NCBI GenBank assembly: GCA_963847625.1
Contig: CAWKAR010000003.1
Location: 110,350-174,349, forward strand
Source of the DNA: a candidate division FCPU426 bacterium
GTDB lineage: Bacteria; Oederibacteriota; Muellerivitia; Muellerivitales; Muellerivitaceae
Length of the DNA: 64,000 nt
Direction: 5' to 3'
Under the pieces are notes generated by a model. The model was given only the letters and a program-made list of their open reading frames with translations, made no database searches and was not told the DNA's origin. Of the stretch, positions 2,348 to 57,328 are shown piece by piece. Each line of letters begins with the position of its first letter. Within the stretch, counting starts at the first letter, position 1. Position numbers and translations under genes: made by a program.

Positions 2348-2375
2348 TGTCCAATACACCTCCCCCAAGTGGACA
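2348..2375 (+). repeat. Cassette-boundary site A
   Basis: TGTCCA ATACACC TCCCC CAAG TGGACA. Confidence 0.8.
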
Positions 2376-2421
2376 AGCTAGACCTTGAAACAGAAACCGC
2401 ACCTGTTATTAACAACAACTT

Positions 2422-2742
2422 TTATGATTTAACCATAATCAACATCATCTTAAACCGCTCCGTTGCCTTCAGGGCATGCGGCTTGTTAGCCGGCATTAAT
2501 ATCATCTCACCCGCTTTAACATGAGAGGGTTTTCCCTCTATCGTAACTTCCGCCTTCCCGTCAAAAATATAAACCAATGCGTCAAAAGGGGCCGTATGCT
2601 CGCTTAATCCCTGCCCCTTGTCAAAAGCGAAGACGGTCACGGTTCCTTTGTCCTTGCGTATAATTTCTTTGCTGACAACAGAACCATCTTGATAGTTCAC
2701 CGATTCAACTAATACTTGGACCTGCCCAATGAAGCTTTCCAT
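2422..2742 (-). CDS. Cupin domain protein
   Basis: FDKGQGLSEHTAPFDA and MPANKPHAL cupin motifs. Confidence 0.85.
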   Translation of the reverse strand: MESFIGQVQVLVESVNYQDGSVVSKEIIRKDKGTVTVFAFDKGQGLSEHTAPFDALVYIFDGKAEVTIEGKPSHVKAGEMILMPANKPHALKATERFKMMLIMVKS

Positions 2743-2770
2743 TATTCCACCTTAACAAGCCTATATATCG

Positions 2771-3187
2771 CTAACGCCGCCCCCGCTTTGAATTGTCAAC
2801 AGACCACTTCCCCCCGCCCTTAGCGGCGATAAAGAGAAATACAAAGCAGTAAATCACCGCCAGCTCGCCGTGGTTGACGATCGGGAAAAAGTTGCTGTCG
2901 AACGCGAACTTCCAATGGAATTGAAAATAGGCCACCGCCATCTGACCGCTGGCCAGAAACGCGGCGAAGGTCGTTCTCAACCCCGCCAAAATCAACAACC
3001 CACACACCAATTCAATGATGCCGCCAACCCACAATTGGGACCCCACCGGAGGTCTCATACTGGGATCGGTCAACAACCCCAAAATCTTTTGGGCTCCATG
3101 AAACGAGAACAGAAAACCAGACACGATCCGCAATAAACCGTAGGTTTCCTCGGAATACTTCAAAAGATGCTGCTCAAATTTACTCAT
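2771..3187 (-). CDS. DoxX family membrane protein
   Basis: LLRIVSG..HGAQK, ASGQMAVAYF, NHGELA, GGGKWSVD. Confidence 0.85.
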   Translation of the reverse strand: MSKFEQHLLKYSEETYGLLRIVSGFLFSFHGAQKILGLLTDPSMRPPVGSQLWVGGIIELVCGLLILAGLRTTFAAFLASGQMAVAYFQFHWKFAFDSNFFPIVNHGELAVIYCFVFLFIAAKGGGKWSVDNSKRGRR

Positions 3188-3216
3188 ATATCCGTGCCTC
3201 CCTTCATTTTATGCAA

Positions 3217-3690
3217 TTATTCCTCGTCGATTTGTTCTACGAGGTAGTTCTTCAAATCCATTTGTTTGATTTGGTCCTGCTGAGCTTCAAGCCAGTCGAT
3301 ATGGGCCTCTTCGTCCTTAAGAATCGCTTCGAGGAGATCCCTGGTGCCGTTGTCCCCTAGTTCGGAAGCCAGTTTTATTGCGGCGTTATATGCCTTAATG
3401 GCGCTTTCCTCGGCGGTCCAGTCGTTCTTGATTTGCTCGGGTACGTCGGCGCCGATATGGATGGCTAGGAGCTTCGAGACGATGGGCACTCCCTCTAGGA
3501 ATAGGATCCTGCCGATGAGCTTCTCGGCATGTTTCATCTCATCCTTGGCGCGTTTTTCAGTCATCTTGTGGAGCCGCCCGTAACCCCAGTTGGCGCACAT
3601 TTCCGAATGAACCATATATTGGTTGACGGCGGTAAGCTCGTCAGATAATTGTGTGTTCAACGTCTCAATGATCTTTGGATTGCCTTTCAT
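3217..3690 (-). CDS. bfr: Bacterioferritin
   Basis: MKG..ELTAVNQY..H, EMKHAE, ILFLEG, DEEAHIDWLE. Confidence 0.92.
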   Translation of the reverse strand: MKGNPKIIETLNTQLSDELTAVNQYMVHSEMCANWGYGRLHKMTEKRAKDEMKHAEKLIGRILFLEGVPIVSKLLAIHIGADVPEQIKNDWTAEESAIKAYNAAIKLASELGDNGTRDLLEAILKDEEAHIDWLEAQQDQIKQMDLKNYLVEQIDEE

Positions 3691-3769
3691 TTCATTTTCT
3701 CCTATTAAAAGTTGATTAATAAAGATTCTAACATTTTGATAGACCGAGTTTAAAATTAAGAAACTTGGT

Positions 3770-4342
3770 TTAGGCCCCGAATCTGGTTCCGGCTTCGGCC
3801 CAGTCGATGGCTTTCAGGAAGGCCTGCACGTAATCGGGCTTGGCCAGACCATAATCCACCATATAGGCATGCTCGAACACGTCCCCCAAGAGGACCGGCA
3901 CGGAGCCAGCCGGATATCCCGCATCGTGCTCGTTGATCCAAACGTTGAACAGTTTTTTCCCGACCGGGTCGTAAGTCAAAGCCGCCCAGCCTATGCCCCG
4001 CATGCCGCACACGGCCGCGAAGGCCTTTTTCCAATTATCCACCGAGCCGAAATCAGCCTTGATCTGACCAGCTAGTTTTCCCGAGGGCTCGGCTTGCTTC
4101 GGGACCTTGGTCATGTTCCCAAAGTAAAGTTCATGCAGTCTCATGCCATTGAACTCCCATCCAAATCTTCTCTTCAGTTCCGCGAAACCCGGGGTGCCGG
4201 CTTCGGCCTTCTCCAAAAGCTCCACGACCTTGTTCACGTTGGTCACATAACCTTCATAAAGCTTAAAATGGTTCTTCAACAGAGTTTCGCTGAAGCCGGG
4301 TGTCCCGATCAGGCTTGAAAAATCTTTTGGCTGGTAAGGCAT
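3770..4342 (-). CDS. Fe/Mn superoxide dismutase family protein
   Basis: HFKLYEGYV, LHELYF, DVFEHAY; likely start MPYQPKD at 4342. Confidence 0.88.
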   Translation of the reverse strand: MPYQPKDFSSLIGTPGFSETLLKNHFKLYEGYVTNVNKVVELLEKAEAGTPGFAELKRRFGWEFNGMRLHELYFGNMTKVPKQAEPSGKLAGQIKADFGSVDNWKKAFAAVCGMRGIGWAALTYDPVGKKLFNVWINEHDAGYPAGSVPVLLGDVFEHAYMVDYGLAKPDYVQAFLKAIDWAEAGTRFGA

Positions 4343-4606
4343 GTTCCCCTCCTTGGTTTGTATTTGATACAAGCAAATCATTTCACGTCTCAAACGCGGC
4401 GCTTCTCCTTTTTCAAATGAATTTTTATCTAATTATCGTCTTAATCATCCGATTCAGTTTCCGCCACCACCGCTTTTAAAACTCCCAAAAAGAGCTCAAT
4501 GAACCAATCCCCGTCATAACGGAAGCCGGTCAACTTTAACGTCGAGGGCCTCAGCGATTTTCATTGAGTAAGTCTTTTGGGGGAATAAAAAAGCATGTTC
4601 GGTCCC

Positions 4607-5119
4607 TCAGGCATTGGCTTTGGCGGCCTTCAAAGCCTTTTCATAGTCTGGTTCTTCGGTGACTTCCTTGACGATTTCCACGTGTTTCACCTTGCCATCC
4701 TTGCCTATGACGAAAAGGGACCTGGCTTCCAGCCGGAGTTCCTTGATATGGGTTCCATAAGCATTCCCAAAGCCCATTTCCCGGTGGTCCGACAGGGTCT
4801 GGATTTTTATATTCTCGACACCGCAAAAACGGGCCTGTGCGAAGGGCAGGTCGGCGGTGATGGTTAAAACCTCGATGGTTTTAGGCAGACGCCCGATTTC
4901 CAGGTTGAACTTCCGGGTCTGGATGGCACAAACCGGGGTATCTAGGGAAGGCGCCACCGATAAAATCAGGGTCTTCCCCTTAAATTGGTCCAGGGTCACT
5001 TCCTGTAGGCTGTTATTCAGAAGTTTGAAATTGGGGGCCGGGTCCCCCACCTTGATTTCAGGCCCGATCAAAGTCAACGGCTTTCCCTTAAAAGTGATGA
5101 CTCCCAAACGTTCTTGCAT
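4607..5119 (-). CDS. tpx: Thiol peroxidase (atypical 2-Cys peroxiredoxin)
   Basis: PSLDTPVC and DLPFAQARFCG. Confidence 0.92.
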   Translation of the reverse strand: MQERLGVITFKGKPLTLIGPEIKVGDPAPNFKLLNNSLQEVTLDQFKGKTLILSVAPSLDTPVCAIQTRKFNLEIGRLPKTIEVLTITADLPFAQARFCGVENIKIQTLSDHREMGFGNAYGTHIKELRLEARSLFVIGKDGKVKHVEIVKEVTEEPDYEKALKAAKANA

Positions 5120-5429
5120 AACATCCTCCCTTTTTATTTCATTCAGATATCGGCAATGGGCGGTTGCTCCCAGTTTAAAACTAAGCGCATCCGATAACAG
5201 CTATCAACCGGAATATCCCAAATTAACTTGCCCGACTACGATGCCAGGTAATTTGTTGCTTCATTTTATTGCCCTCAACGGTTGCTTACCCAGATTTTTT
5301 TGAGGGAGAGGGCCAAATTCGCTTTATGGATCACATCGCGCTAAAAAAGGAAGTCTTTCACTCCCCTGATCCTATTTTCCCAAACTAGGATTTTTTTGGA
5401 AAAAAAGCAATGTACATCGGCCATACACC

Positions 5430-6092
5430 TTACGCTTTGTCCGGAACGGATGGCTTTGACGGCAACTTTATTTCATAAAAATGATCGCAGGCCGGGCATC
5501 GAATGACCTTCATGTCGGACGGCAGGTGAACATCGTAAGCCGCCGCGCAATGGGAACAGGCGGTTTTTAACCCAGTCGGTCGAGAGGTGGAATAATCAAA
5601 TAGGGCCATGCCCGTCGCGTCGTTGAAATAGGAACCGACCGCCGCCGAAGACAGGAGTTCCATCTGGGCCTCAGGCAAGGCAGCCGACGCCGCCTTGTCG
5701 CTCTCATACCCCTCGGCGATCTTCACAACATAATCCATCCAGGCGTTGGTGATGTAAAAAGTCACATAGTGTTTTAAACCGGGTATTCGGAGTGAAATCC
5801 GCTTTAAGTCCTCGCAATGTTCGAAAACCCAAACATCCTTGTCCTTTACAATACCGGGTTCCTCCCAAAACCGGGCCCGAGGATCGGATGGCGGTGGAAG
5901 GTCCCGGCATAAAATCAAAAATAAGGCGTCGGAAACCCGAAGTTGCTTCTGAAAGTCCTCAAAAGCAGCCCTGCCGTCGATTTGCTCGTAGTACTTCCAA
6001 ACCGTCCCGACCCTGACCGTAAAGAACACCTTCTCAAAAAACGGCTTGAACCGTTGGTCCGAGAGGCTGTCAACAATAAGGATTTGACGCAT
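5430..6092 (-). CDS. Hypothetical protein with C-terminal Zn ribbon
   Basis: 220-aa ORF with CSHC..CPAC near the C-terminus. Confidence 0.55.
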   Translation of the reverse strand: MRQILIVDSLSDQRFKPFFEKVFFTVRVGTVWKYYEQIDGRAAFEDFQKQLRVSDALFLILCRDLPPPSDPRARFWEEPGIVKDKDVWVFEHCEDLKRISLRIPGLKHYVTFYITNAWMDYVVKIAEGYESDKAASAALPEAQMELLSSAAVGSYFNDATGMALFDYSTSRPTGLKTACSHCAAAYDVHLPSDMKVIRCPACDHFYEIKLPSKPSVPDKA

Positions 6093-6158
6093 GGTAAACC
6101 ATTCCTTTTTCCAGTTACTGACTTATTTTTTGAAACCTATAAAACGGTCCCAGTTCCC

Positions 6159-6422
6159 TTAATCTTCGGCGATCAGGACAAACTCGGTCCTTGGTGCATG
6201 GCAGGAAGGGCAAGAATCTGAAAACTTTCCACCCCTCGGCATGAGTTCGCCGCATTGCAAACATTTCCAAAGGATTTCGGTTTGACCGGTCAGGGCGTCG
6301 TAATGGTATTCCCCTGCCGGAGCAGGGGGGGTATGCGATGGGGTGCTGGCATGTGGAATTTTCCTTTTTTGGGGTGACATTGTAACAGACTCCTGGGCCC
6401 TAACCGGTCGTATTTTTCCCAT
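6159..6422 (-). CDS. Small rubredoxin-like metal-binding protein
   Basis: WKCLQCG..CPSCHAP..F; start uncertain. Confidence 0.6.
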   Translation of the reverse strand: MGKIRPVRAQESVTMSPQKRKIPHASTPSHTPPAPAGEYHYDALTGQTEILWKCLQCGELMPRGGKFSDSCPSCHAPRTEFVLIAED

Positions 6423-6550
6423 CCCTATTCAAAATGGAAGCTTTATCCCCGCTTTTCCCTGTCCCTTCACTTTAACTCCATTTTTTTTAATCCCCGTCGC
6501 AGTCTTGTAATAAAGCTAGGTTGTCCCTAAATGAATAGAAAGGGGATGCC

Positions 6551-6979
6551 ATGGAAACAGAAGTTCATGTCAATCAAAGGTCCGTCACGGCATTGCTGAT
6601 GTTCGACGGGTTTTGCAACATGTGCGGCAGGATCGCCCGGTTCATTATGCGCCGGGACAAGCACCAGAAATTCATTTTTATCACCCTTCAATCCGGGAGG
6701 GCGAAGGAAATTTTACGGATGAATGGCCTGAACGCCTTGGACATGGGTTCCTTCGTGCTGGTCCAGGACGGCCGGGCCCGCCTTAAGTCGGACGCGATCC
6801 TGGGCGTTTTGGAGGAAATGGGAGGCTGGCTGGACTGGATGCGTGTTTTCAGGCTGGTCCCCGGCCCGTTCCGGGACTGGGTTTACGACCTCATGGCACG
6901 CAACCGTTACCGTCTCTTCGGAAAAAGCAACCAATGCATGAGGCCCAATCCGGAATTCAAAGACCGGTTTCCGGAATAA
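6551..6979 (+). CDS. DCC1/YuxK-like thiol-disulfide oxidoreductase
   Basis: FDGFCNMC and RDWVYDLMARNRYRLFGK. Confidence 0.88.
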   Translation: METEVHVNQRSVTALLMFDGFCNMCGRIARFIMRRDKHQKFIFITLQSGRAKEILRMNGLNALDMGSFVLVQDGRARLKSDAILGVLEEMGGWLDWMRVFRLVPGPFRDWVYDLMARNRYRLFGKSNQCMRPNPEFKDRFPE

Positions 6980-7040
6980 GGTTCGGAGGTTTGTCGCTTC
7001 AAAGGGGCTTTTGGAAAATCCCAGGACCGTGTTCTTCCCT

Positions 7041-7655
7041 TTATGGATTCATGCAACCTTGGGCCTTTGACACGACCAAGCGCAGGGACCGCAAGACCGG
7101 CCTGCCGCCGGGTAGTTCGCTGGCCATCTCGTAGCGCGGTACGGTGGGTTCCACCGCGATCGACCATGCGTCGATGCCTCCGGTCATGGACTTGACGTTC
7201 GTGAAACCGTGGCCCGCAAAATAAGCGGCGGCATCCAGGCTTCTCTCCCCCCGGTGGCAGTAAAAGACAATGGGTGTCTTCTTGGGCCAACCGATGATTT
7301 CCCTCGCCAAATCCTCGGTGATGAGTACCGCGCCGGGAATTCTGGCCATTTCCCACTCCTCGGGGGTCCTCACATCGATCAGACGCGGTGGGTGGAGGCT
7401 CATCAGGGCCTTCGCCACGTTTATGGGGCTTTCCTGGATGCGTCCTTCATTTTTTTCGGCTTCCTTGATGAAGCGGATGACCTCGTCGAGGTCGGACAGA
7501 CCGCGCTTACTCACCACGTCTTCCAGGATGTCCTGCGGCTCGTAACCGCAGCTGTGGCATCCGCCGATGTGGTAGCGCCGGAAGAGCGCGCGCTGGACGC
7601 TCGGATAGGCCTCCAGGACCTCCTGCATGGTACTTCGTTTCGAAATGGTAGCCAT
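7041..7655 (-). CDS. Rhodanese-domain protein with N-terminal GGCxxC domain
   Basis: IDVRTPEEW, YCHRGERS, GGIDAWS. Confidence 0.8.
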   Translation of the reverse strand: MATISKRSTMQEVLEAYPSVQRALFRRYHIGGCHSCGYEPQDILEDVVSKRGLSDLDEVIRFIKEAEKNEGRIQESPINVAKALMSLHPPRLIDVRTPEEWEMARIPGAVLITEDLAREIIGWPKKTPIVFYCHRGERSLDAAAYFAGHGFTNVKSMTGGIDAWSIAVEPTVPRYEMASELPGGRPVLRSLRLVVSKAQGCMNP

Positions 7656-7751
7656 TGGTTTCTCCCCTTTTTTACCGCTGAATTCCGTACTAAATCGTTA
7701 TAAAAAATCTACGCCGGCCCTCCCTCGGAAATCAAGAGGTCATCCACGCGT

Positions 7752-8687
7752 TTATCCCTTCGCCTCCTCGAAAAGCCAGGTGGAAAGGTATCGTTCGCCC
7801 GTATCCGGTACGATGACGACAATCGTCTTACCCTTGTTTTCGGGCCGCTTGGCAACTTGAATCGCCGCCCAAACGGCCGCGCCGCAGGAAATGCCGGCCA
7901 GGATTCCTTCCTTACGGGCCAGTTGCCGCGCGATCTCCCCGGCGTTCTCGTGGCTGACCCGGATGACCTCATCGATGATTTCTCGGTTCAGGATAGCCGG
8001 GACAAAACCCGCCCCGAGGCCCTGGATTTTGTGGGGTGCCGGCGCCCCGCCCGACAAAACAGGTGAGGCGTCGGGTTCCACCGCGATAGCCTTGAAGGAA
8101 GGTTTGCGCTTCTTGATAACTTCCGCCACTCCCGTGATAGTGCCGCCGGTTCCCACCCCGGAGATGAGGATGTCCACCTTGCCGTCGGTGTCCGCCCAAA
8201 TTTCCTCCGCCGTGGTTTTGCGGTGGATTTCGGGGTTCGCGGGATTGTTGAATTGCTGGGGGATGAAGCTGTTGGGGGTTTCTTTGGCCAGTTCCTCGGC
8301 CTTCGCGATCGCCCCTTTCATTCCCTTCGGCCCCTCGGTCAAGATCAGTTCGGCGCCAAAAATCTTAAGGAGCTGGCGTCTCTCCAAACTCATGGTTTCC
8401 GGCATGGTGAGGATGAGCTTGTACCCCTTGGCGGCGGCCACGAACGCCAGGGCTATCCCGGTGTTGCCGCTGGTGGGTTCAATGATGACGGTGTCTTTCT
8501 TGAGAACCCCGCGCTTCTCGGCATCCTCGATCATTGCCAGGCCAATCCGGTCCTTCACGCTGGACAAGGGATTGAAGGATTCCAGCTTGGCCAGTACGGT
8601 CGCCACCACCCCTTCGGTAACCCGGTTCAACTGCACCAGGGGAGTGCGGCCGATTGTCTTGGTTATATCGTCGTATATTTTAGCCAT
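7752..8687 (-). CDS. cysK: Cysteine synthase A
   Basis: [32 protein letters not shown]. Confidence 0.95.
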
Positions 8688-8980
8688 GTTTCACCTCATG
8701 CTTTCCCGAGCGCTTGCTCGATGTCGGCGGGGGAACCGGCTAAAGGGATGGTCCCCGCGAAGTGTCGGTCTCCCGGATTAACTCCCGGGGCCGCTCCCGG
8801 GTTTTCCAGTGGACTGGGATACCGGTTATGGTGGGTGGTTAATGGGTCCGGTTTGTCCGGTCCCGATTAAAGGAACAACCATTGAAACACATAAATAATC
8901 TGGTCATAACGCCCCAAATATCAAGGGCCCCCGGAAACGCTTGCTCCGGGCCGTCCGGAGGGGGTATGGATTTAATTTCC

Positions 8981-9652
8981 TTAACGCTGGACCTTAATGT
9001 TAATCATGCCATTCTGAAGGGACCCATATAAACGAACCCACAAAGCCAGGTACATTTCGGGACCCCTGGCGGCGGAAATATCCCCTAAATCCAAAATATC
9101 CGTCCAACCGAGGGACTTGAGAAGACCGGCGACCTTAGCCTTGGCATCCTTGTCATTACCTGCCATAAAAATGGTGTGATCCCCATTCTTAACTGATTTC
9201 GGATTAACCATAACAGGCGCCGCGATGGTATTGAGAGTCTTGACCACTTTGAGATTGGGAAAGGCATTTTGAATGTTCTCGGCGACTGAGCGGATTTGAC
9301 CAGCAAGAACCGCCGGCGGCATGCCCTTGCTGAAATCCAACTCATTCGCCGTATCAATCAGGACTTTCGCACCGACTTGACTTGCTCCGGCCATTTGAAG
9401 AGCTTGTACCGATGCCTGTCCGTGGGTGGCATTGATGAGAATTTCCCCATGGTTTGCGGCCTCTTGAAAAGTGACTACTTTTGCCTTGTTTTGAATTTTC
9501 TCCAGCCACTCTTTTAGGCTTCCGGCCATGTTCTTTTTTTCGTCCAGTTTTTGAGGGTTTCTCGTTCCCAAAACCACGTCATTTCCCAATTCTACCAACC
9601 TGATCCCCAAGGTTTGACCCACTACACCTGATCCAATAATGCCAATTTTCAT
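8981..9652 (-). CDS. NADP oxidoreductase (F420-dependent family)
   Basis: GIIGSGVVG Rossmann motif, VVKTLNT, DLGDISAAR. Confidence 0.85.
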   Translation of the reverse strand: MKIGIIGSGVVGQTLGIRLVELGNDVVLGTRNPQKLDEKKNMAGSLKEWLEKIQNKAKVVTFQEAANHGEILINATHGQASVQALQMAGASQVGAKVLIDTANELDFSKGMPPAVLAGQIRSVAENIQNAFPNLKVVKTLNTIAAPVMVNPKSVKNGDHTIFMAGNDKDAKAKVAGLLKSLGWTDILDLGDISAARGPEMYLALWVRLYGSLQNGMINIKVQR

Positions 9653-9758
9653 ATCATTCCCCTTAACCTTCTTAAACTTTTAATTCAGGGTAATACTATT
9701 GATAGGTTTTTATGGAAAGCAAGGCAAGATCTGGGATTTATTTTTTTGGTTGGAGGAT

Positions 9759-9786
9759 CATCCAATGCGGGTCCCCGTTGTGGACG
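9759..9786 (+). repeat. Cassette-boundary site B
   Basis: CATCCA ATGCGGG TCCCC GTTG TGGACG. Confidence 0.75.
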
Positions 9787-9860
9787 ACGAAATATTTTTG
9801 ATAAGAATTGCCGGACTTGCCTTTCTGATTGTTCATGGAATTTTGGCGAAAACGCGGAGG

Positions 9861-10394
9861 TTAACTTTCTTCATTGGAAAGGTTGGGGGTGTCTTTGATG
9901 GAGAAGGTCAAAAGTCGGCAAAGCTGGGTTTTTTCCTTTTCTTCCACCAGCCGGTCTACCACAGGATAAAGTGTCCGGTTTTCCCTTGCTGAATGCTGTT
10001 CCATGTATTTTTTGAATTGGGCTTCATCGTCGAATAAGGCGATGATTTCCTTCCAATTGGAGTCGCTACGGCTCAAGCGGGAGGCCCGCAGGGTGATCCG
10101 GTTGAACCATTCCGTGATTTTTTTGTGTTCCGAAGAAATAACCTCGGTTTCGTCACCCTGGGATTGATCAACCTTTTGGCGGTAGATGGGCAGCAGAATC
10201 TCATCTTCTTCCCTCATGTGATTGAAAAGGGCTTTGCCTAAAGTCTTCAACATTGCCTTGGCTTGGATTAAATCGCTCTTGAGGATAGCCACTTGGTGGT
10301 TTTCGAACAATTCATGCATTTCACGGTGGATATTGTTCAAGTCTAAGAGAGTGCGCGATTGGAATTCCATCATTTTAGGTTTTCCTGAATTCAA
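9861..10394 (-). CDS. Hemerythrin/HHE domain protein
   Basis: HMREEDEILLP, EH, HSARENRTLYP. Confidence 0.75.
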   Translation of the reverse strand: MNSGKPKMMEFQSRTLLDLNNIHREMHELFENHQVAILKSDLIQAKAMLKTLGKALFNHMREEDEILLPIYRQKVDQSQGDETEVISSEHKKITEWFNRITLRASRLSRSDSNWKEIIALFDDEAQFKKYMEQHSARENRTLYPVVDRLVEEKEKTQLCRLLTFSIKDTPNLSNEES

Positions 10395-10480
10395 TATTTC
10401 TTATCGTAGTACCCCACCATGTAAATGATCCGATTGACCGGTTTATCCTAAATCGCAGACTAACGGACATGGTGCAATAG

Positions 10481-11620
10481 TCAAAAAGGTTGGCCATCGA
10501 CCGAACCACAGTATTCGTAGACGCGCACATTCACATTTTTCCCTTTCAACTGCAGCTCGCCGATATCCCTGAAGTCCCGAGGATTCTTGAGCCGCGAATA
10601 CGTCGATTCGGTGACCAAGATCGAGCCTGGTTTTGCCATGGTTTGCACGCGCGCCGCCGTATTCACGGGGTCTCCGATGACCATCACTTCTTTTCGCGTT
10701 AAGGAACCCACTTCACCCCGGATTACCATCCCGCTGTTGATGCCGATTCGGACAGGGAGGGACTGTTTCCCTTCCTGCAGGCGGTCCTCGTCTATCCGGT
10801 GGATGATTTTCTGGATGCGGATGCCCGCTTGGACGGCATCGTTGGCGTCATTGAAAACGGCCAGCGCGGCATCCCCCATGAACTTATCGATATCCCCACG
10901 GCATTCCCGGATCGGCACCTCGCAAAGACTGAATATTGTGTTTAGCGCCCAGACCACTTCCGAAGGGGTTTCAGTCTCGACGAACGCCGTGAACCCCACG
11001 ATGTCCAGGAACAAAATCGTCAGATCAAGAACTTCAGCTTTCGCCTCCCGGGAGGTCGATGCCTGGGTAAAAGCCTCGCTATAGCTGGCGAAGGAGACGT
11101 ATCTCTTGATGATCTTGTTGAATTTCTGCAGGAGCAGCCGAAGATCCTCTGCCTTGGTGATATCCCGAAAGTATTCAATGGCCCCTATTATGCGGCCTTC
11201 GTTGTCCTTTAGGGGAGTGACGTGGGTGAGGACCGGGAAACGATGTCCCTTCTTGTGCAACGGAAAAATCTTTGCTTGAATAGGCTTCTCTTCGTCCATA
11301 GAACGCTGGAGGGGACAGGATCCCGTACAAAGAAGATTTCCGTTCACGTCAATATGGTTGAGGATATTGTCAGAACAAGGACGACCCAGGACCTCCGCGG
11401 CGCTGTATCCCGTGATATTCTCGGCACCCTTATTCCAGAAGATGATCCGCCTCTGCCGATCCGTGACGTAGATACCGTCGAAAGGGACATCCAGCAGCAT
11501 CTCGACATTTGGAAGTATCCGGATCATTTCAGCAAAGGAATTCGAGTTTATTCCTTCACCGGCTCCCCTAATATTTTCTTCCGCCACTGGACCTCCGTTT
11601 GTTTCTAAAATCTTTTGCAA
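10481..11620 (-). CDS. PAS-domain adenylate/guanylate cyclase
   Basis: PAS (WNKGAENITGY), FLDIVGFT, DKFMGD, GDPVNTAARVQ, LKGK. Confidence 0.88.
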   Translation of the reverse strand: MQKILETNGGPVAEENIRGAGEGINSNSFAEMIRILPNVEMLLDVPFDGIYVTDRQRRIIFWNKGAENITGYSAAEVLGRPCSDNILNHIDVNGNLLCTGSCPLQRSMDEEKPIQAKIFPLHKKGHRFPVLTHVTPLKDNEGRIIGAIEYFRDITKAEDLRLLLQKFNKIIKRYVSFASYSEAFTQASTSREAKAEVLDLTILFLDIVGFTAFVETETPSEVVWALNTIFSLCEVPIRECRGDIDKFMGDAALAVFNDANDAVQAGIRIQKIIHRIDEDRLQEGKQSLPVRIGINSGMVIRGEVGSLTRKEVMVIGDPVNTAARVQTMAKPGSILVTESTYSRLKNPRDFRDIGELQLKGKNVNVRVYEYCGSVDGQPF

Positions 11621-11711
11621 CCAACTGCATTACACTACAAAGCTATTAACCGAAATTTCCCAGATAATCTACTCCATTATAGAAGTAAGTTATGAAAGTA
11701 AATCCATCAGC

Positions 11712-11739
11712 TGTCAAATCCGGGTCCCTGCCGTGGACA
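11712..11739 (+). repeat. Cassette-boundary site C
   Basis: TGTCAA ATCCGGG TCCCT GCCG TGGACA. Confidence 0.75.
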
Positions 11740-11918
11740 AACAAAAACATAAAACTCTTGTATTTTAGCTCTTTGGTAAAACCGGCGGAAAATCTTCGAA
11801 AACCAGGGAAAATTGAAGGGTGATTCTGGGTACATCAAGGGAAGAAAAATATATCGCGGCGGGCAAGGCCTGGGAATATACATTTCTTGGTGCGGCTGAT
11901 TTTAAAATATGGCCTAAT

Positions 11919-14357
11919 TTAATTCTGTGTAATTTTCCGGATTAAATAGTTCCATGTATCCGCAACATAAACGTTTCCAGCGGAATCCACCGCGACTCCA
12001 TAAGGATGATTAAACGTTGCGCAGGCACCCATTCCGTTCGTGGAGCCCGTAATCCCCGCTGATCCCGCCAGGGTCGTTACCACACCTCCAGTGCCGATCA
12101 CCTTGATCAAATAGTTGTAAGAATCCGCTACATAAACATTCCCCGATGAATCGACCGCGATTCCAAAAGGCCAATTGAAACCCCCCGCCAGGAACGTCAC
12201 CACCCCCGCCGGGCTGATTTCCAGGACATCGTTGTTATACGTATCGGCGACGTATACGTTCCCCGATAAATCGACCGCAACTCCCATGGGACTATTAAAG
12301 CCTGCGGCGGACCCCGCCAGAGTTGTCACTACCCCCCCGGAGGTAATTTCCCGGATCATATTGTTGCCGGTATCCGCGACATAAACGTTCCCCGACGAAT
12401 CCACCGCGACTCCAGAGGGGCTATTGAATGACGCGGCGGTCCCGGTACCGTTGGCGGAACCCGCAGACCCTGACCCCGCCAGGGTTGTCACCACACCTCC
12501 CGGGCTGATTTCCCGGATCATGTTATTTTGGTTATCGGCGACGTAAACATTTCCGGAAGAATCGACAGCGACACCACGGGGATGTTTAAAAGACGCGGCG
12601 GTCCCTGTTCCGTTGGCGGATCCGAAAGGCAATGACCCCGCCAGGGTTGATACCGCGCCCCCGGGGCTGATTTCCAGGATCAGATAATCCCCGACGTAAA
12701 TATTCCCGGAGGAATCGACCGCGATTCCCCAGGGTTCACTGAACGATGCCGGGCCCGCCAGGGTCGTTACCACTCGGCCGGAACATGGGGTGTTGGTGGG
12801 GGTATTCGTCGGCGTAAAGGTGATTGTCGGGGTTGGCGAAATCGTAATGGTAAAAGTCATGGTGGGGCTAAAAGTGGCCGTCACATAGGGCCCGCCGATC
12901 GGGCAGCTGTTCAACCAGATACTGGCCTGGGCCACCGCGTAATGGGTGGTGCATTGGTTCGTAAGGACCGTTGGGCAACTGGTATAAGCGGTGCCTCCGT
13001 CGATGGCCCCTAATTTGTAACTTGCGCCTGAGGTGTTGAAATGGGGGTTGCAGGTTGGGTTACAGCTTGTGGCAAGATATGCAAGCCAATAGCTTTTTCC
13101 CCCGCCGGGCAGGTAAGTGGGACTTTGCACGTTGAAAAGATTCACGCCGCTGGTGGTGGTTTGGATGTTTGTTTGGGCTACCAGGGTACCCGGCTGTGCC
13201 GAAGCGTCGTTATAGATGGCCATTTGGACGCTGAATCCGGTGTCCAACATGTTGATTTCCATGGAGTAAACGGAAAGATCGGGCCCGGTGACAGTAATAG
13301 GGACAGCTAGGATGTATTGGGCGGGGAAATTCGAGGAACCATCCGCCGTTGGAAAACCAAAAACCGAATAATAGGGGCAAAGCGGTGTCAAGGGTGTGGT
13401 TGGGGTATTGGTGGGGGTGGAAGTGGCGGTGGAGGTTGCGGTGTTGGTGGGGGTCCCGGTAAAGGTATTGGTCGGGGTAACTGTAGAAGTGTTTGTGAAG
13501 GTGTCCGTCATTGTATTAGTCGGAGAATCCGTAGGGGTGTTCGTGTCCGTCGCTGTCGGTGTCGCCGTGTCGGTTGGAGTTGGTGAGGGTGTATTCGTAG
13601 GAGTGGAAGACGGGGTTTCCGTCGGGGTGTTCGTGTCCGTCGCTGTCGGTGTCGCCGTGTCGGTTGAAGTTGGTGAGGGTGTATCCGTAGGAGTGGAAGA
13701 CGGGGTTTCCGTCGGGGTGTTCGTGTCCGTCGCTGTCGGTGTCGCCGTGTCGATTGGAGTTGGTGAGGGTGTATCCGTAGGAGTGGAAGACGGGGTTTCC
13801 GTCGGGGTGTTCGTGTCCGTCGCTGTCGGTGTCGCCGTGTCGATTGGAGTTGGTGAGGGTGTATCCGTAGGAGTGGTCGTCGCGGTATCCGTCAGGGTGT
13901 CGGTAGCGGTATTGGTCCCAGTTTCAGTCGAAGTATTCGTTTCCGTATAAGAGGGTGTTGAAGTCGTTGAACTAGTGGCTGTCGATGTCACCATATTGGT
14001 AAAGGTATCAGTCGTCGTGCCGGTAGTCGTAAGGGTATCCGTCATGGTGGGGGTGTTGGTATAAGTCACCGTGGAGGTGGAAGAAACTGTGGGAGTAGGA
14101 GTTTCCGTGATGGTTGAAATTCGAGTCCATGTATTCGTGGCCATGGGGGTGCTGGTCGGCGTCACGGTAAAGGGAATGGTGAAAATAGCCGTCAAGGTTG
14201 GTGTAGGGGTTGATGTTTGTGCCGGTGTATTGGTCGCGGTGGCTTTATTAACCGGTGGGGTAGTTGGGCTGTTTGAATTACTGCACGCGATGGGGAAAAT
14301 CAATAAAAACGATATAAGCAACAAAGCGAACCTGGGAAAATAAAAATAACGACGCAT
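11919..14357 (-). CDS. Surface lipoprotein with Thr/Pro-rich linker and NHL beta-propeller
   Basis: Lipobox PIAC, TPT repeats, repeated [16 protein letters not shown]. Confidence 0.85.
13531..13876. repeat. 90-bp coding tandem repeat, about 3.8 units
   Basis: Near-identical units starting at 13531, 13621, 13711 and 13801. Confidence 0.9.
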
Positions 14358-14676
14358 AGCGGCCTCCCCTTATGCCATTTGTGGATTCTATCCTCGACCC
14401 AAATAACTCTCAAGTAGGTTAAGGTAAATTAATCAATGCCGGTTACTTTCTGTAAGGGGTAAATTGGATAGGAATTTGGGTGTTCGCGGTTAAGTTCGTC
14501 TTATCAAAGCCTGGAAAACGAGGGGTTATTTCAAAATTAACGCGGAAAGAAAAATAATATCCAACAATTCGGCTTCTTGAAATTTTCTATTTTCAAACTG
14601 GACCCTTTTACCTCACAGGTGTTTTCTAATGACACTTCCAACAAAATCAATATTTATTCCCTGATCACTTTTAGGT

Positions 14677-14704
14677 TGTCCACAATGGCTCCCCGTCGTG
14701 AACA
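14677..14704 (+). repeat. Cassette-boundary site D
   Basis: TGTCCA CAATGGC TCCCC GTCG TGAACA. Confidence 0.8.
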
Positions 14705-14778
14705 GCATATTTAGGGACAATTATTGAAATGGCATCTTTCCGATATTCTCGTTTTAAGGTCTATTCAGGGTAAAAAAT

Positions 14779-15300
14779 TTAATATTTACCCCGGTGGACG
14801 AGGTCCGACAGCGTTCGCCGTGAAGTCGGTGCCGGTTCTTCATCGGAATACCCCAATGGGAGTATGGTCACAGGCCTTATATGGGCTGGAACATCAATGG
14901 CCTCACGGACTTTCTCCTCGTTGAAAGCTCCCACCCATACAGTGACTAGACCCAATCCCGTCGCGGCAAGCTGGGTGTAGGCCGCGGCAATGGTTGCGTC
15001 CTGGACGCTGTACAAATCTTTTCCACGCGCCCCGTACTTGGATCCGCTTCGTTCCTCGTTTGCGCAAAAAACCAGCGCCAACGGCGCGGGCTTCGCGAAC
15101 GTCTGGCCCAAAAGGGCTGTCCACAACTGGTTCAGGAGATACGAATCGTCTACAACGACTATCTCGTATCCCTGGCTGTCCCCTGCTGAAGGGGCCTGGT
15201 TGGCAGCTTCGAGAATTTTATCCAAAATTTCGTTCTCGACTTGTTTTGCCAGGTAACCCCGAACGGACCGCCTTTTCCAAATGGCTTCAAAAAGTTCCAT
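14779..15300 (-). CDS. Nitroreductase family protein
   Basis: RRSVRGY, APSAGDSQ, GLVTVWVGAF, LPLGY. Confidence 0.9.
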   Translation of the reverse strand: MELFEAIWKRRSVRGYLAKQVENEILDKILEAANQAPSAGDSQGYEIVVVDDSYLLNQLWTALLGQTFAKPAPLALVFCANEERSGSKYGARGKDLYSVQDATIAAAYTQLAATGLGLVTVWVGAFNEEKVREAIDVPAHIRPVTILPLGYSDEEPAPTSRRTLSDLVHRGKY

Positions 15301-15387
15301 GATCCACCCCTTTCCGATCTTCTCCCAATATTCGATTTAATCTTTTATTAACTCTACAAAAGTATTCGCCTCTATGGAAAGCCTTAT

Positions 15388-16659
15388 TCATTTTTCGGGA
15401 TTTTCGGTCAGTGAAAATATTTCATTCAGCATTCGCGCATACTCAAGGCGGTCCCGATCGGTTTTCACCTTTTTCAGGTTGACCGAGGGCTCGTGTAGCA
15501 AGCGCGCCGTCAGATCGTGGACGAGACGTTCCACCGCTTTTCTTTCATTCTCCGACAGGTTGGGATGTTTTTTCAGGAATTCCTCCCATTCCGCGCGCCT
15601 AACTTCCTCAAAGCTGTCTCTCAGCCTCACCACGGTTGGCACCAATTCCAGCGAGTTGTACCAGGTGCAAAGCTTTTCCACCTCCTCGCGCAGGATAGCC
15701 TCGGCCGATTTCACGGCTTTCAACCGCCCGGCGCGGTTGGCTTCCGCGAGGCCCGCTAAATTGTCGATATTGTAAAGATAGACCGATTCGATTTTCCCCG
15801 CCCCGGGGTCCACGTTCCGGGGCACGGCGATATCGATGATTAAGAGGGGTTTACCATTCCGGTTTTTCATGGCCGTTTCAACTTGTTCCCGGGCCAATTG
15901 GAATTTTCCGCCGCCCACCGAAGTCACCACGATGTCCATCCAATCCATCCGGTTCACCCCCCCCTCCAGGGTCAGGGCTTCACCGCCCAGCTTCGCGGCG
16001 AGGATTTTCGCCTTCTCCAGGGTCCTGTTGGCGATGAAAAGACCCTGCACGCCGGCGTCAGCGAGGTATTTGGCCGTCAGTTCCCCCATCTCACCCGCGC
16101 CCAAAAGCAGAACCCGTTGGCTGGACAAGTCGCTGAAAATCTTGCCGGCCAGGTCCACCGCCACGCTGGAAACGTTGGTGGGCATCCGGGAGATTTCTGT
16201 CTGAGCGCGCACCCTCTTGGCGGCGGAAAAGGCCCTGTGGAAAACGCCGTGTAAAACGGCTCCGACCATGGAGCCGCAATAGGCTTGCCGGAAGGCATCC
16301 TTGACCTGTCCGAGGATTTGGGCTTCCCCCACTACCATGGAATCCAGGGAGCTCGCCACCCGGAAAAGATGGAGAAATGCGTCCGGGCCTTCGTAAATGT
16401 AAAAATACTTTTGGATTTCAGGGGGTTTCAACCGGTGGATTCGTCCCAAAACCTTCCGGATCCTAGCCAGGCACTGCCTTTCGGCGTCCGTAGCAACATA
16501 AAATTCCACCCGGTTGCAAGTGGAAAGGAATACCGCCTCGGCCGCCGCGGGCTTTAATTCCTCGAGAACTTTCAAAACCTTTTCGGGCGGCAAGGCGTAC
16601 TTTTCCCGGGTTGGAAGCGGGGCGGTCCTATGATTCATTCCGTAGGCAATGAACTTCAT
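15388..16659 (-). CDS. hemA: Glutamyl-tRNA reductase
   Basis: LSTCNRVE, SLDSMVVGEAQILGQVK, GAGEMG, DIAVPRNVD. Confidence 0.95.
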   Translation of the reverse strand: MKFIAYGMNHRTAPLPTREKYALPPEKVLKVLEELKPAAAEAVFLSTCNRVEFYVATDAERQCLARIRKVLGRIHRLKPPEIQKYFYIYEGPDAFLHLFRVASSLDSMVVGEAQILGQVKDAFRQAYCGSMVGAVLHGVFHRAFSAAKRVRAQTEISRMPTNVSSVAVDLAGKIFSDLSSQRVLLLGAGEMGELTAKYLADAGVQGLFIANRTLEKAKILAAKLGGEALTLEGGVNRMDWMDIVVTSVGGGKFQLAREQVETAMKNRNGKPLLIIDIAVPRNVDPGAGKIESVYLYNIDNLAGLAEANRAGRLKAVKSAEAILREEVEKLCTWYNSLELVPTVVRLRDSFEEVRRAEWEEFLKKHPNLSENERKAVERLVHDLTARLLHEPSVNLKKVKTDRDRLEYARMLNEIFSLTENPEK

Positions 16660-16710
16660 CCGGTTTCCTTAGTCGTTGGTTCTCTAAAACATGTGAAAAG
16701 TTGATAAAAA

Positions 16711-16738
16711 CCCTCATTCTGCCTCCCCAGCGTGGACA
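16711..16738 (+). repeat. Cassette-boundary site E (left arm degenerate)
   Basis: CCCTCA TTCTGCC TCCCC AGCG TGGACA. Confidence 0.65.
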
Positions 16739-33441: not shown

Positions 33442-33469
33442 TGTCCACGACGGGTCCCCAGAGTGGACA
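33442..33469 (+). repeat. Cassette-boundary site H
   Basis: TGTCCA CGACGGG TCCCC AGAG TGGACA. Confidence 0.85.
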
Positions 33470-33548
33470 GACATGTGCCGATCAATTGGCTTATTTTACC
33501 TCTTACTGAGCATATAAAAAAATTGTCACGAATAAGCTGTTTTACTGT

Positions 33549-34603: not shown

Positions 34604-34684
34604 TGTTTATTTAACACCCAACTAATGGTTTCTGAATGAGCCCCAACCCCTTGACTCTTTATTTGCATATGCAATAATATATAT

Positions 34685-34984: not shown

Positions 34985-35229
34985 AAACAGTCAATGTCCG
35001 GGATCTTCAGAAAAAGATAAAAGAATTCGTCGATGCCTCCCAAAAGGACCGTGTGGTATTAACCCGCCATGGCAAGCCGTCAGCCATCCTGGTCGGGGTT
35101 GAGGGTGAAGACTGGGAAACGGTTGTGCAGGAAACCAACGCCGAATTTTGGAATTTAATCCAATCCCGCAGAAAGCAAAAAACCATCCCACTTGCCGTGA
35201 TGAAAACCCGCTTGAAATTGAAAAAATAG
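34981..35229 (+). CDS. Phd/YefM antitoxin
   Basis: VVLTRHGKPSAILVG; ATGA overlap with the toxin gene. Confidence 0.85.
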   Translation: MKTVNVRDLQKKIKEFVDASQKDRVVLTRHGKPSAILVGVEGEDWETVVQETNAEFWNLIQSRRKQKTIPLAVMKTRLKLKK

Positions 35230-35230
35230 T

Positions 35231-35283
35231 TGTCCAATCCCACTGCCATTTGCTGCGGTGCAAATGGCTCCCCGGGTTGGACT
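35231..35283 (+). repeat. Cassette-boundary site I (53-bp variant; right half resembles a tRNA 3' end)
   Basis: TGTCCA ATCCCACTGCCATTTGC TGCGGT GCAAATGGC TCCCC GGGT TGGACT. Confidence 0.75.
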
Positions 35284-55538: not shown

Positions 55539-55866
55539 GCGCTAGCTCCTCTGAATGTTTTCGACTTATCCACAATATTCAGCTTATCCACATTTTTCAT
55601 CAGCAGATAGGTTTTACGGTTTCCTAAACCGCGTAAACCCGTTGCCAGGAGCATTTTAAGGTTAAAAGCAAAACCTAACTAGGGCAATCATGTTTAAAAA
55701 CTGTAATAACATTCAAATATATGCTTAATGAATAAGCTCACGTACAGAAGGGGTAAAACTTGTGGAAATGGATTAAAACTCAGTTTTACCTTGAAACTTG
55801 GGTATTGGTGGGGATTAAAGCGATAAGACAGGTAGTTTGTAAAAATAGAAGCATTCGATCAGGATA

Positions 55867-56445
55867 TTATTCCACCTTCAACAGCGTAAAGGAAATTCCA
55901 TTTTTGTTGTACTTAGTAGTCATTCCGAGAATGTTCCCTTCGGAGTCCTTCAGGAAAGTCACCTCGTAATCTGAATGCACTTCCTGGAAATCACCGTCGG
56001 ATTCGGGCAAAAGCCGGATTTCACTGGAACTGCTTCCTAACCTTATGGCCAGCAGACCGTCCCGGACCTCCACATTCACCTGGTCGCCGACTTTTTGTTT
56101 CACTTGGTCAGAAACAACCTCAAAACGGTACTGGCCGACGTAAGGTCGCAATTCCAAGTTGGTCTGCTTGATCTTATTTTCCCGCCGGACCATGACGATA
56201 ACCAGAAGAGCCGCCAGGGCCAGGACAGCGGCCAACCAAACCAGGTTGGGAAATTTTCGCGGTCTTTTTTCCGGTTCCCGGGCCGTTACAACGATTTTCG
56301 GAAGTTCCCTTACCTTTTCCCTGACTCTTAGCCGGCGCGGTTTGAGGACAATGGTTTTTTTTCGATATTTCGGCCTTCCCGCTCCCGCTTTACCCACGAT
56401 TTTTTTAGGCCATGGCCTTGGTGTTTTTTCCTTTTTCTTCTTCAA
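55867..56445 (-). CDS. Hypothetical membrane-anchored protein
   Basis: Basic N-terminus, one TM segment, YVGQY beta-rich C-terminal domain. Confidence 0.55.
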   Translation of the reverse strand: MKKKKEKTPRPWPKKIVGKAGAGRPKYRKKTIVLKPRRLRVREKVRELPKIVVTAREPEKRPRKFPNLVWLAAVLALAALLVIVMVRRENKIKQTNLELRPYVGQYRFEVVSDQVKQKVGDQVNVEVRDGLLAIRLGSSSSEIRLLPESDGDFQEVHSDYEVTFLKDSEGNILGMTTKYNKNGISFTLLKVE

Positions 56446-56498
56446 ACAATCGCTCCTTTAAGTCTCACGAAAGTTCGCCTCGAAACCCTCTTTTCTCA

Positions 56499-56526
56499 CT
56501 TTTGAAACGGCTCCACGGAATGGATG
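56499..56526 (+). repeat. Cassette-boundary half-site K (right half only)
   Basis: CTTTTG AAACGGC TCCAC GGAA TGGATG. Confidence 0.45.
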
Positions 56527-56549
56527 TTTTGCGAAAAGGGCATTTTGAT

Positions 56550-57200
56550 TTACTTATTATTTAAGTCCTTATTTTGTTTTTCCAAGCGGGCTTGAAGTTC
56601 TAAATAGCTTTCATTTCTTTCGGTATCTACCCCACCCCGTTCCGGCACAGTTGTGTCGCTGGCCGCGACTCGGTGGACAATCAATGCTGCGATGATAAAA
56701 CCAGACAAAACGCAAAGAATCGCCACAAAAAGGATGAGACCGTTCCCCTTGTTTTTCCCGCTCCCACCGGTAAAAGCCTTGAAGACGCTTCCCAAAGCCT
56801 TCGGAAAGTTATCGATCGCGTTGAAGGTGTTGTGCATATTGGCATAGGTGTTGTATGCGGCTATCCCCATGTTTTTAACTGAATGGTTCCGATAGGCGTT
56901 GGCCCAACTCTGGAACATGATGGCATAACCCGAGAAAAGAAAACCCGGAACCAACAGCACATAACCCGCCTGGAAAAAAAGACCGGCTTGTTCAGGGGTG
57001 ATCTTACCTGCGGATACTAATACGTTTCCGACGACGATAAGGATGTCCCAACTAAAGCCCAGTGAGGACATCAGGTAACCCATCCAGGCCATGAAACGGT
57101 AGCCGCCCCCCGCATGTTTTGCCTCCACCCAGACTTTGCCCGTCGCATAAGCGTTCCAAATACTGATGGCCAGATTCAACAGCCAAATAAAAACGATCAT
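56550..57200 (-). CDS. Hypothetical membrane protein
   Basis: 216-aa ORF with several TM segments; AGGAG RBS. Confidence 0.65.
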   Translation of the reverse strand: MIVFIWLLNLAISIWNAYATGKVWVEAKHAGGGYRFMAWMGYLMSSLGFSWDILIVVGNVLVSAGKITPEQAGLFFQAGYVLLVPGFLFSGYAIMFQSWANAYRNHSVKNMGIAAYNTYANMHNTFNAIDNFPKALGSVFKAFTGGSGKNKGNGLILFVAILCVLSGFIIAALIVHRVAASDTTVPERGGVDTERNESYLELQARLEKQNKDLNNK

Positions 57201-57300
57201 ACTGTTCTCCTTTTATCCTTAATTTCTAAGATGATCTTTCCTGGCAATCTCGCTTCGGCGCTAAAAGATATCTCACGCACTTGATACTTCGAATTGATGT

Positions 57301-57328
57301 TGTCCAATGCGCCTCCCTGTCATGGATA
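57301..57328 (+). repeat. Cassette-boundary site J
   Basis: TGTCCA ATGCGCC TCCCT GTCA TGGATA. Confidence 0.7.

Follow-up and report, generated by a model that had tools for sequence, protein, structure and literature searches.

Cassette arrays delimited by a 28-bp site family, with a candidate short serine recombinase, in a candidate division FCPU426 lineage

Introduction

Gene-cassette platforms are known essentially from integrons, which rely on one tyrosine integrase and on attC sites folded from single-stranded DNA. These attC sites are imperfect palindromes of 55–141 bp, conserved in structure and ending in RYYYAAC/GTTRRRY. The units of staphylococcal cassette chromosomes (SCC) measure tens of kb, occupy one chromosomal locus and go with full-length recombinases. 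Site I of the Tn3/gamma-delta resolvases is 28 bp long, with inverted arms of 12–13 bp ending in TGTCY and a central dinucleotide at which strands are exchanged and whose asymmetry sets polarity. In phage integrases, a zinc-ribbon and coiled-coil module imposes attP/attB directionality, and the zinc-ribbon domain of large serine integrases reads the outer region of the phage att sites. The pdif sites, which resemble dif, alternate in orientation around the modules that they flank. Here we analyse a family of 28-bp sites found in a 64,000-nucleotide stretch of DNA (the window) from a candidate division FCPU426 bacterium (assembly GCA_963847625.1, contig CAWKAR010000003.1, positions 110,350–174,349), together with the gene arrays that such sites delimit in this genome and its relatives.

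We propose that a site-specific recombination system particular to this lineage moves cassettes of one or two genes and uses the 28-bp sequences for crossover, with a serine recombinase of about 277 aa as the likeliest enzyme; judging from the sequence comparisons reported below, we put the probability of this reading at roughly 0.6. The system resembles an integron built of different parts. By layout it is nearest to integrons and by enzyme to the large-serine-recombinase islands of the SCC type, and it lacks the defining traits of both. An earlier interpretation of the window, made without database searches (the sequence-only reading), had proposed that a site-specific recombinase accreted excisable modules in tandem. 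Our data support this proposal, with recombination itself as the process that we infer behind them. In titles and the opening parts of abstracts we found no published description of a 28-bp cassette system served by a serine recombinase. The 13-mer of the site did not turn up in paper full texts as far as these are open to searching, where motif strings matched primers only.

Results

The 28-bp sites

We compared the genome holding the window (G000, a 4.43-Mb assembly on which gene calls are crude) with a genome of the same genus (G001), a five-contig genome of the same family (G002) and a family set of 31 genomes. Twelve genomes from other families of the phylum served as outgroup for the 28-bp motif. 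The site consensus is TGTCCACGACGGG-TC-CCCGTCGTGGACA, a near-palindrome laid out as 13-2-13. With at most one mismatch, this pattern had 680 matches in the family set (28 of the 31 genomes positive), against a single match for the reversed control. With up to two mismatches, all 18 of the 18 other family members were positive, as were 5 of the 12 genomes from other families, with 1–2 matches each. The exact 28-mer was present in 37 stretches from 9 records of metagenome-assembled genomes when one genome each of 185,579 species was searched; the titles of these records include 'uncultured proteobacterium', 'uncultured bacterium' and 'Candidatus Firestonebacteria bacterium'. The site sequence is kept across at least 15 genera of the family, which points to recognition by a protein.

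The whole G000 assembly contains 47 two-armed sites, counting both the 28-bp form and variants of 47, 52, 53 and 76 bp, and 45 of them lie outside gene calls. A logo of 90 sites showed that conservation is confined to positions 0–29, with no conservation in the flanks and no T-tract after the stem in either direction, and that it is stronger in the right arm (TCCCCGTCGTGGACA) than in the left. The centre was TC or GA in 103 of 114 matches to the arms alone; about six of the others look like chance matches and five are site-like with a TT or CC centre. We also looked for covariation between the arms. At positions 7–13 there were 444 Watson-Crick pairs, compared with 433.6 ± 6.8 when right arms were shuffled among sites, and 150 of 2000 shuffles reached 444. 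The arms thus vary independently, which is easier to reconcile with protein binding to double-stranded DNA than with a hairpin that has to form. About ten longer variants (52, 53 or 76 bp) carry an inner hairpin of 9 bp between the arms; they are found in the window at 32838–32890 and 35231–35283 and on contigs C13, C33, C51 and C63 of G000. Changes in the inner stem are compensatory, and its loop (TGCGGT or GGGG) is constant.

A likeness to a tRNA gene was noted on the side. When the 3' end of a tRNA-Asn gene of G000 (C4:10228–10302) is read as its reverse complement (GGCTCCCCGGGTTGGACT), 14 of 18 positions agree by eye with the right half-site in its GGC variant, and partial copies of this tRNA 3' end are present on contigs C4, C12, C27 and C57. 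The likeness may bear on how the site arose, or it may reflect the search pattern.

Arrays and their cargo

The sites of G000 are grouped on few contigs, with one orientation per cluster, and G002 has about ten arrays in which sites of the same orientation follow each other at 0.3–3 kb. The motif was not scattered upstream of core genes, which the sequence-only reading had listed among the outcomes that would count against its proposal, but clustered and strand-locked in the genome and its relatives. In the G002 arrays, a unit consists of one or two open reading frames (ORFs), with a stop codon in most cases 2–50 bp before the site and the next start about 30–50 bp beyond it; over all arrays, the distance from stop codon to site is 1–100 bp. 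To quantify the strand lock, we counted ORFs of at least 60 codons ending within 120 bp of a site. Among 46 sites of G000, such an ORF ended on the TCCCC...TGGACA side only in 21 cases, on the other side only in 2, on both sides in 17 and on neither in 6. The corresponding numbers for 42 sites at G002 loci were 29, 3, 7 and 3.

The cargo is mixed and includes GNAT acetyltransferases, a HAD hydrolase, NHL repeats, an outer-membrane barrel, a LOG-like protein, PIN and BrnT/BrnA pairs, AraC, hemerythrin and many unknowns. Several arrays start directly downstream of a large resident gene with which they share the strand, and many arrays have no link with tRNA genes.

A group II intron encoding a 458-aa reverse transcriptase and maturase was found between positions 17 and 18 of the site next to the recombinase gene of G018 (C9, about 7.1–9.1 kb; see below). 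The same intron end adjoins the identical position of an array site in G040 (contig C40). The sole related intron end in G000 (C20:35418) is not within a site.

Homology between genomes stops at the sites

In line with the proposal of the sequence-only reading, homology between genomes broke off at the sites, and it did so in all 27 of the 27 inspected cross-genome matches of at least 75% identity. The PIN toxin–antitoxin unit of the window (32042–32890) was found in 10 genomes of 8 other genera with 79–86% identity. Eight of the ten blocks begin within site 32042 and the other two 12–14 nt after it; all end between 15 nt before and 10 nt into the next site, and none runs into the neighbouring unit. 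When the ten copies were fetched, eight were bordered by a site or half-site on one side or both, and two lacked any. With an 8-kb array of G002 as query, each of 17 matches of at least 75% identity (17/17) lay within a single cassette. One of these cassettes, encoding an outer-membrane barrel, matched a genome of a different genus with 97% identity, where shared genes otherwise reach about 65–80%. For a toxin–antitoxin cassette, we fetched seven loci: in 7/7 the homologous block begins inside the left site, and in 6/7 it stops at the final bases of the right one. In two copies with a left arm that is not site-like, homology begins 3 nt before the central TC.

Further evidence came from within G002, where two arrays share a 1276-bp unit (site, NHL-repeat ORF, site) with 100% identity although the sequences around it are unrelated. 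The rare arm variants of this unit sit in the gene-side halves of the sites, and the outer halves are consensus. Because outer halves usually are consensus, the crossover cannot be placed more precisely within the site, and the breakpoint data are only consistent with an exchange at the centre. No duplicated cassettes were found inside G000, where the only repeats of this sort were copies of insertion sequences and gene paralogs without sites.

A short serine recombinase adjoins the arrays

A scan for Resolvase domains disclosed, on contig C61 of G000, a serine recombinase gene whose stop codon lies 8 nt from the first site of an array. Its counterpart in G002 (81% identity) is placed likewise. 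The sequence-only reading had recommended a search for a serine or tyrosine recombinase at the array end; a serine recombinase is indeed present there in relatives and in G000, where the window clusters are devoid of it and the only intact copy is the one on C61. The protein of about 277 aa comprises a Resolvase domain (PF00239, E 4e-22; PDB matches 3guv and 3bvp) and a Recombinase domain (PF07508, E 5e-14, residues 187–271). Its N-terminal domain matches solved catalytic domains of large serine recombinases, and the catalytic motif YVRVSSKEQ is invariant in the 7/7 aligned sequences. No zinc ribbon with embedded coiled coil was found in the short proteins, which end at about residue 275, where their paralogs of 510–515 aa begin the CxxC motifs.

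The family set contains five intact copies (G000, G002, G018, G034 and G038; 71–79% identity) and three N-truncated remnants. At all eight of these loci (8/8), a site, or a site with degenerate left arm, lies 8–36 nt past the recombinase stop and is followed by cassettes on the opposite strand, so that the gene and the array converge. In G018 this site is the one split by the group II intron. The arrangement 'stop, 14 nt, TGTTC(C/A)(T/C)TTTGGG-TC-right arm' is kept in five loci (three in G034, one each in G038 and G040), and pairwise homology between recombinase loci stops at the last base of the site. By analogy with integrons, the site with degenerate left arm would take the place of an attI-like primary site. 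Small ORFs upstream of the recombinase had no Pfam match.

We then inspected metagenomic loci, namely 33 of 80 returned. In all four contigs with a short copy (76–78% identity), a site or a site-like palindrome lay no more than 111 nt from the stop; in one of them it is cut by the contig end. No site adjoined the gene in any of 19 full-length relatives (471–558 aa) or of three shorter ORFs with 56–58% identity among these loci. The short clade appears well delimited: a search of 5.8 billion proteins gave 19 clusters at 70% identity or more, all of 275–283 aa, and the next relatives were at 60%. Of the 28 pairs among eight short-form sequences, 7 were saturated; in the 21 others, the ratio of nonsynonymous to synonymous substitution rates was 0.048–0.163. 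The short form is thus under purifying selection and is no decaying fragment.

The five genomes that contain an intact recombinase each have 29 sites or more, and no intact copy occurs in the 19 genomes whose site count is below 20. As the genomes are related, this is no independent test.

Discussion

Proposed mechanism

Two 13-bp inverted arms around a non-palindromic dinucleotide are the layout that one would expect, by analogy with related enzymes, for a serine recombinase without zinc ribbon. We envisage that a recombinase dimer would bind the two arms of one site and that two sites would pair in a tetramer. All four strands would then be cut at the central TC, half of the complex would rotate and the ends would be rejoined. 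Since TC is not self-complementary, sites could pair in one orientation only. Recombination between direct repeats of the site would give rise to a circle with a single site and its gene, and this circle could re-enter any other site in one orientation, producing arrays of the same orientation. With the zinc-ribbon and coiled-coil directionality module missing, we propose that the reaction is reversible between like sites.

We see about an even chance for the fuller picture, namely that a serine recombinase without zinc ribbon reversibly moves single-gene cassettes at many loci by way of minimal 28-bp sites, with cassettes spread across at least 15 genera, and that this system has converged on features of integrons, including recombinase-less arrays and a homing group II intron.

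Several observations weigh against the proposal. No recombination product, circle or empty site was seen, either in metagenomic contigs or by comparison with G001. The former were four peat-metagenome contig runs of one study (0.08–0.21 of sampled words), which covered window 1–20000 thinly with contigs of 200–600 nt; no joint lay at a site, and those observed lie in NHL repeats or conserved genes. The same search brought up no RNA run. The latter, at 56.4–57.4 kb of the window, showed a replacement (888 bp against 140 unrelated bases in G001) and no clean empty site. Another difficulty is that arrays are present where no short recombinase was detected, in G040 (93 sites, with a recombinase fragment only), G031 (43), G033 (41), G006 (39), G011 (28), G016 (24) and G001 (23), and G011 has no Resolvase domain at all. 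Another enzyme could be responsible, or these arrays could be inactive remnants. Furthermore, the recombinase meets the array from its 3' end, and it could equally be the integrase of a unit of its own that uses the sites as mere targets; in one of the metagenomic short copies the neighbouring site is in reverse orientation. The proposed model does not account for the 52–76-bp variants with their compensatory inner hairpin. Finally, there are about ten right-half-only sites and about two left-half-only sites, an excess that would not be expected from simple reciprocal exchange at secondary sites.

Other explanations

The sites could be recombined by another enzyme, for instance by a host tyrosine recombinase of the Xer type acting on an 11-6-11 site, as proposed for Acinetobacter pdif, and the short serine recombinase would then be a passenger or a site-targeting integrase. 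A geometry of 11-6-11 in 28 bp does suit the core site of a tyrosine recombinase, the 8-bp centre GGGTCCCC is constant in 75 of 103 oriented sites, several tyrosine recombinases are present in every genome searched, and arrays exist in genomes without any serine recombinase, such as G011. We nevertheless consider this explanation unlikely, since no tyrosine recombinase adjoins an array (the nearest in G000 is 15.7 kb from a site), no integron integrase exceeded the cut-off in any of the 31 genomes, and the adjacency of the serine recombinase is specific and recurrent. Seven tyrosine integrase paralogs of G000 (57–67% identity), which we considered as candidates, sit beside tRNA genes and are unrelated to the arrays.

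Equally improbable in our view is that the 28-mer is a hairpin, of the repetitive extragenic palindrome (REP) type or an mRNA stabiliser or terminator at RNA 3' ends, that spreads by itself, with cassette-like shuffling arising incidentally when its copies undergo homologous or illegitimate recombination. A 12-bp stem is possible, sites lie just past stop codons and are strand-locked, and the inner hairpin of the long variants is compensatory. The group II intron, at the same position of two sites, also fits, as group II introns of this kind target stem-loops. Covariation of the arms is at chance level, however, and there is neither a T-tract nor conservation of the flanks beyond positions 0 and 29. 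Furthermore, the copies are clustered rather than dispersed, and the link with the recombinase would be left unexplained.

G000 does encode three RAYT-like proteins of 311–349 aa (C39:22954–23889, C22 and C24:100257–101204), two of whose genes share about 250 bp of identical upstream sequence. Two of these three Y1_Tnp genes are flanked on both sides by inverted GGGGTCAGGCC and the third upstream only; the 28-mer is not the flanking repeat, which speaks against a REP/RAYT system.

It is very improbable that the motif is the operator of a transcription factor for stress and accessory genes. It is a palindrome and, in the window, also lies 50–320 bp upstream of the next minus-strand gene, but its distance to the upstream stop is tight (mostly 1–50 bp) and that to the next start loose, the sites follow unrelated genes of every functional class, and homology breakpoints coincide with them. 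Least credible of all is that the sites are classical attC sites in clusters lacking an integrase (CALINs): the co-oriented, promoter-poor cassettes with a site after the ORF, the integron-typical content (GNAT, toxin–antitoxin pairs, unknowns) and the partial match of the outer arms GTCCA/TGGAC to RYYYA/TRRRY are in keeping with it, but no integron integrase (TIGR02249, cut-off 265 bits) was found in the 31 genomes (best score 84.5 bits in the family and 45 bits in G000), 28 bp is about half the shortest known attC, and the arms, compared at paired positions, do not covary although attC works through its folded structure. The sequence-only reading had come to the same view of integrons from the lack of attC ends.

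Comparison with described systems

Our preferred interpretation, a cassette system served by a serine recombinase, has much in common with integrons: compact, co-oriented one- or two-gene cassettes with the site just after the ORF, cassettes common to different genera regardless of their neighbours, a recombinase gene at one end beside a specialised variant site and many arrays without recombinase, and a cargo rich in toxin–antitoxin pairs, acetyltransferases and unknowns. The group II intron homing into 28-bp sites recalls the group IIC-attC introns of integrons. The differences are equally clear. The candidate enzyme is a serine recombinase and there is no IntI; the sites are symmetric, 28 bp long and kept in sequence rather than structure, their arms do not covary, and only the inner five bases of each attC end fit them. 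The recombinase gene converges on the array, whereas it diverges from it in integrons, and there are about ten arrays per genome, several of the mapped ones starting right after a resident gene.

With SCC and SCCmec (CcrAB/CcrC, 3' end of rlmH), the system shares a recombinase of the large serine family with Resolvase and Recombinase domains, as well as the tandem accretion of units between direct repeats of an integration site at a gene 3' end. In contrast to SCC, the units here measure 0.5–3 kb and occupy many loci, and the enzyme has no zinc ribbon or coiled coil. The 28-bp crossover-type site with inverted arms and asymmetric central dinucleotide is like resolvase site I and the att sites of phage serine integrases. 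Unlike in Tn3/gamma-delta, there are no accessory sites II/III, as judged from the extent of conservation, the C-terminal domain is PF07508 and not HTH_7, and the sites are not paired within a transposon. The pdif modules of Acinetobacter plasmids, which depend on XerC/XerD, are likewise small exchangeable modules, including toxin–antitoxin pairs, between 28-bp sites; here all array sites are direct repeats and we found no link to Xer.

If our interpretation is correct, this would be an independent cassette platform that uses a serine recombinase and a double-stranded 28-bp site, and cassette capture would have evolved more than once. The enzyme would be a natural minimal serine recombinase (catalytic and Recombinase domains) with a short defined site, of use for studies of recombinase mechanics and for genome engineering. 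How cassettes are born is an open question for integrons, and the simple site, together with the second copies of hemA, superoxide dismutase and cyclase described below, may make cassette origin testable. The arrays would also point to the main route of accessory-gene exchange in a poorly known lineage of soil and peat.

Features of the window

In the window, the arms-only pattern TGTCCA-N16-TGGACA (at most two mismatches) matched eight times, against 2.52 expected, and none of 100 shuffles reached eight. Six of these matches were sites noted by the sequence-only reading; the other two, at 8539 and 32005, are apparently chance matches. A weight matrix derived from the 90 sites, the window's own among them, had no match in five shuffles and found seven full 28-bp sites (2348, 9759, 11712, 14677, 32042, 33442 and 57301). 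All scored best on the + strand, in agreement with the earlier remark that the asymmetric core keeps to one strand. A right-half matrix added 16711 and, in the 53-bp variant at 32838, the right end (Table 1). Nine of the 11 sites originally listed were in this way recovered. The one at 35231 was accepted because its architecture is shared with eight other long copies in G000; its right end merges into another repeat family, and it lies between two + strand genes, not between convergent genes as had been thought. The half-site at 56499 was not supported: it scored below the matrix threshold, in a region without confident alignment to G001.

Table 1. Sites and intervening units in the window
Feature	Coordinates	Strand	Remarks
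28-bp site	2348..2375	+	46 bp past stop of cupin gene 2422-2742(-); matrix score 26.9
7.4-kb inter-site block	2376..9758	-	cupin, DoxX, ferritin-like, Fe/Mn superoxide dismutase, peroxiredoxin, DCC1-like (+ strand), rhodanese, pyridoxal phosphate (PLP) enzyme, F420-type oxidoreductase
28-bp site, degenerate outer arms (CATCCA...TGGACG)	9759..9786	+	74 bp past hemerythrin stop; score 30.8
Cassette: hemerythrin and PAS-adenylate/guanylate cyclase	9787..11711	-	paralogs on other contigs, 84% and 95% identity
28-bp site	11712..11739	+	score 34.3
Cassette: 812-aa NHL-repeat protein	11740..14676	-	NHL cassettes also in arrays of relatives
28-bp site	14677..14704	+	74 bp past nitroreductase stop; score 39.2
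Unit: nitroreductase and second hemA copy	14705..16710	-	hemA 94% identical to copy on contig C19
Right-half-only site (TCCCCAGCGTGGACA)	16711..16738	+	homology to G001 hemA locus stops here
28-bp site, perfect 13-2-13 palindrome except central TC	32042..32069	+	13 bp past PIN gene stop; score 45.2
Cassette: PIN toxin–antitoxin pair	32070..32837	-	homologous only between its two sites
53-bp long variant: two arms and inner hairpin, loop TGCGGT	32838..32890	+	right-half matrix and architecture
Cassette: P-loop kinase-like protein	32891..33441	-	in one other genome only, on a contig other than that of its PIN cassette
28-bp site	33442..33469	+	score 41.4
Unit: IS30-like insertion sequence and ParE/Phd pair, pair opposite to usual orientation	33470..35230	+	
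53-bp long variant	35231..35283	+	1 bp past Phd stop; right half below matrix threshold
888-bp stretch with 216-aa ORF (56550-57200) and site 57301	56462..57349	-	140 unrelated bases in syntenic G001
28-bp site, weaker match	57301..57328	+	32 bp past stop of conserved 89-aa ORF 57361-57630(-); score 23.3

Instead of the single 55-kb array first imagined, the sites form three clusters (2348–16738, 32042–35283 and 57301). The window is collinear with G001 from 40.9 to 59 kb and partly from 19.6 to 26.7 kb, which indicates ordinary chromosome without cassettes; the 15-kb respiratory block that had been taken for a cassette is not supported as one. On the other hand, the distances to stop codons given by the sequence-only reading were correct on recheck, and Pfam annotation confirmed the gene modules that it had named. 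The same annotation showed four transposases in the window and, in agreement with that reading, no site-specific recombinase.

In positions 1–17500, every gene matches a separate place in G001. Several of these genes have another copy in G000 that is not accompanied by sites: hemA (94% identity), cyclase (95%), superoxide dismutase (89%), DoxX (90%), PLP enzyme (88%) and hemerythrin (84%). For the housekeeping genes among them that are usually single-copy (hemA at 15388–16659, Fe/Mn superoxide dismutase and the cysteine-synthase-like PLP enzyme), these copies may reflect the capture of resident genes by cassettes or a mixture of strains in the bin. The block at 2376–9758 exceeds the typical length of a cassette; its genes stand singly and dispersed in G001, and several have paralogs elsewhere in G000.

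The IS30-like insertion sequence at about 33544–34610 (HTH_38 and rve, 326 aa) has about 45 copies with 99–100% identity in G000, three of which lie within about 100 bp of a site. The repeat family that adjoins the 35231 variant (TCCCCGGGYTGGACTCCCTTCGTTTCACTCAGGGCAAGCTCAC, about 45 bp) has five copies, at 35269–35330 of the window and at C13:75265, C33:45247, C39:239790 and C60:122086 of G000.

Scans with Rfam and for tRNAs found only tRNA-Leu in the window, with a tRNA-Leu(CAA) gene at 58957. A tyrosine integrase gene lies beside tRNA-Leu(CAG) at C3:95530–96960 of G000, 13.4 kb upstream of the window, and the whole window may be inside or beside a large integrated island. A 1202-bp stretch that contains AbiEi-like genes is present twice around the first two site clusters (290–1491 and 35571–36772), inverted and 100% identical, with a third, partial copy on C39; it may be an invertible segment, a composite element or an effect of assembly.

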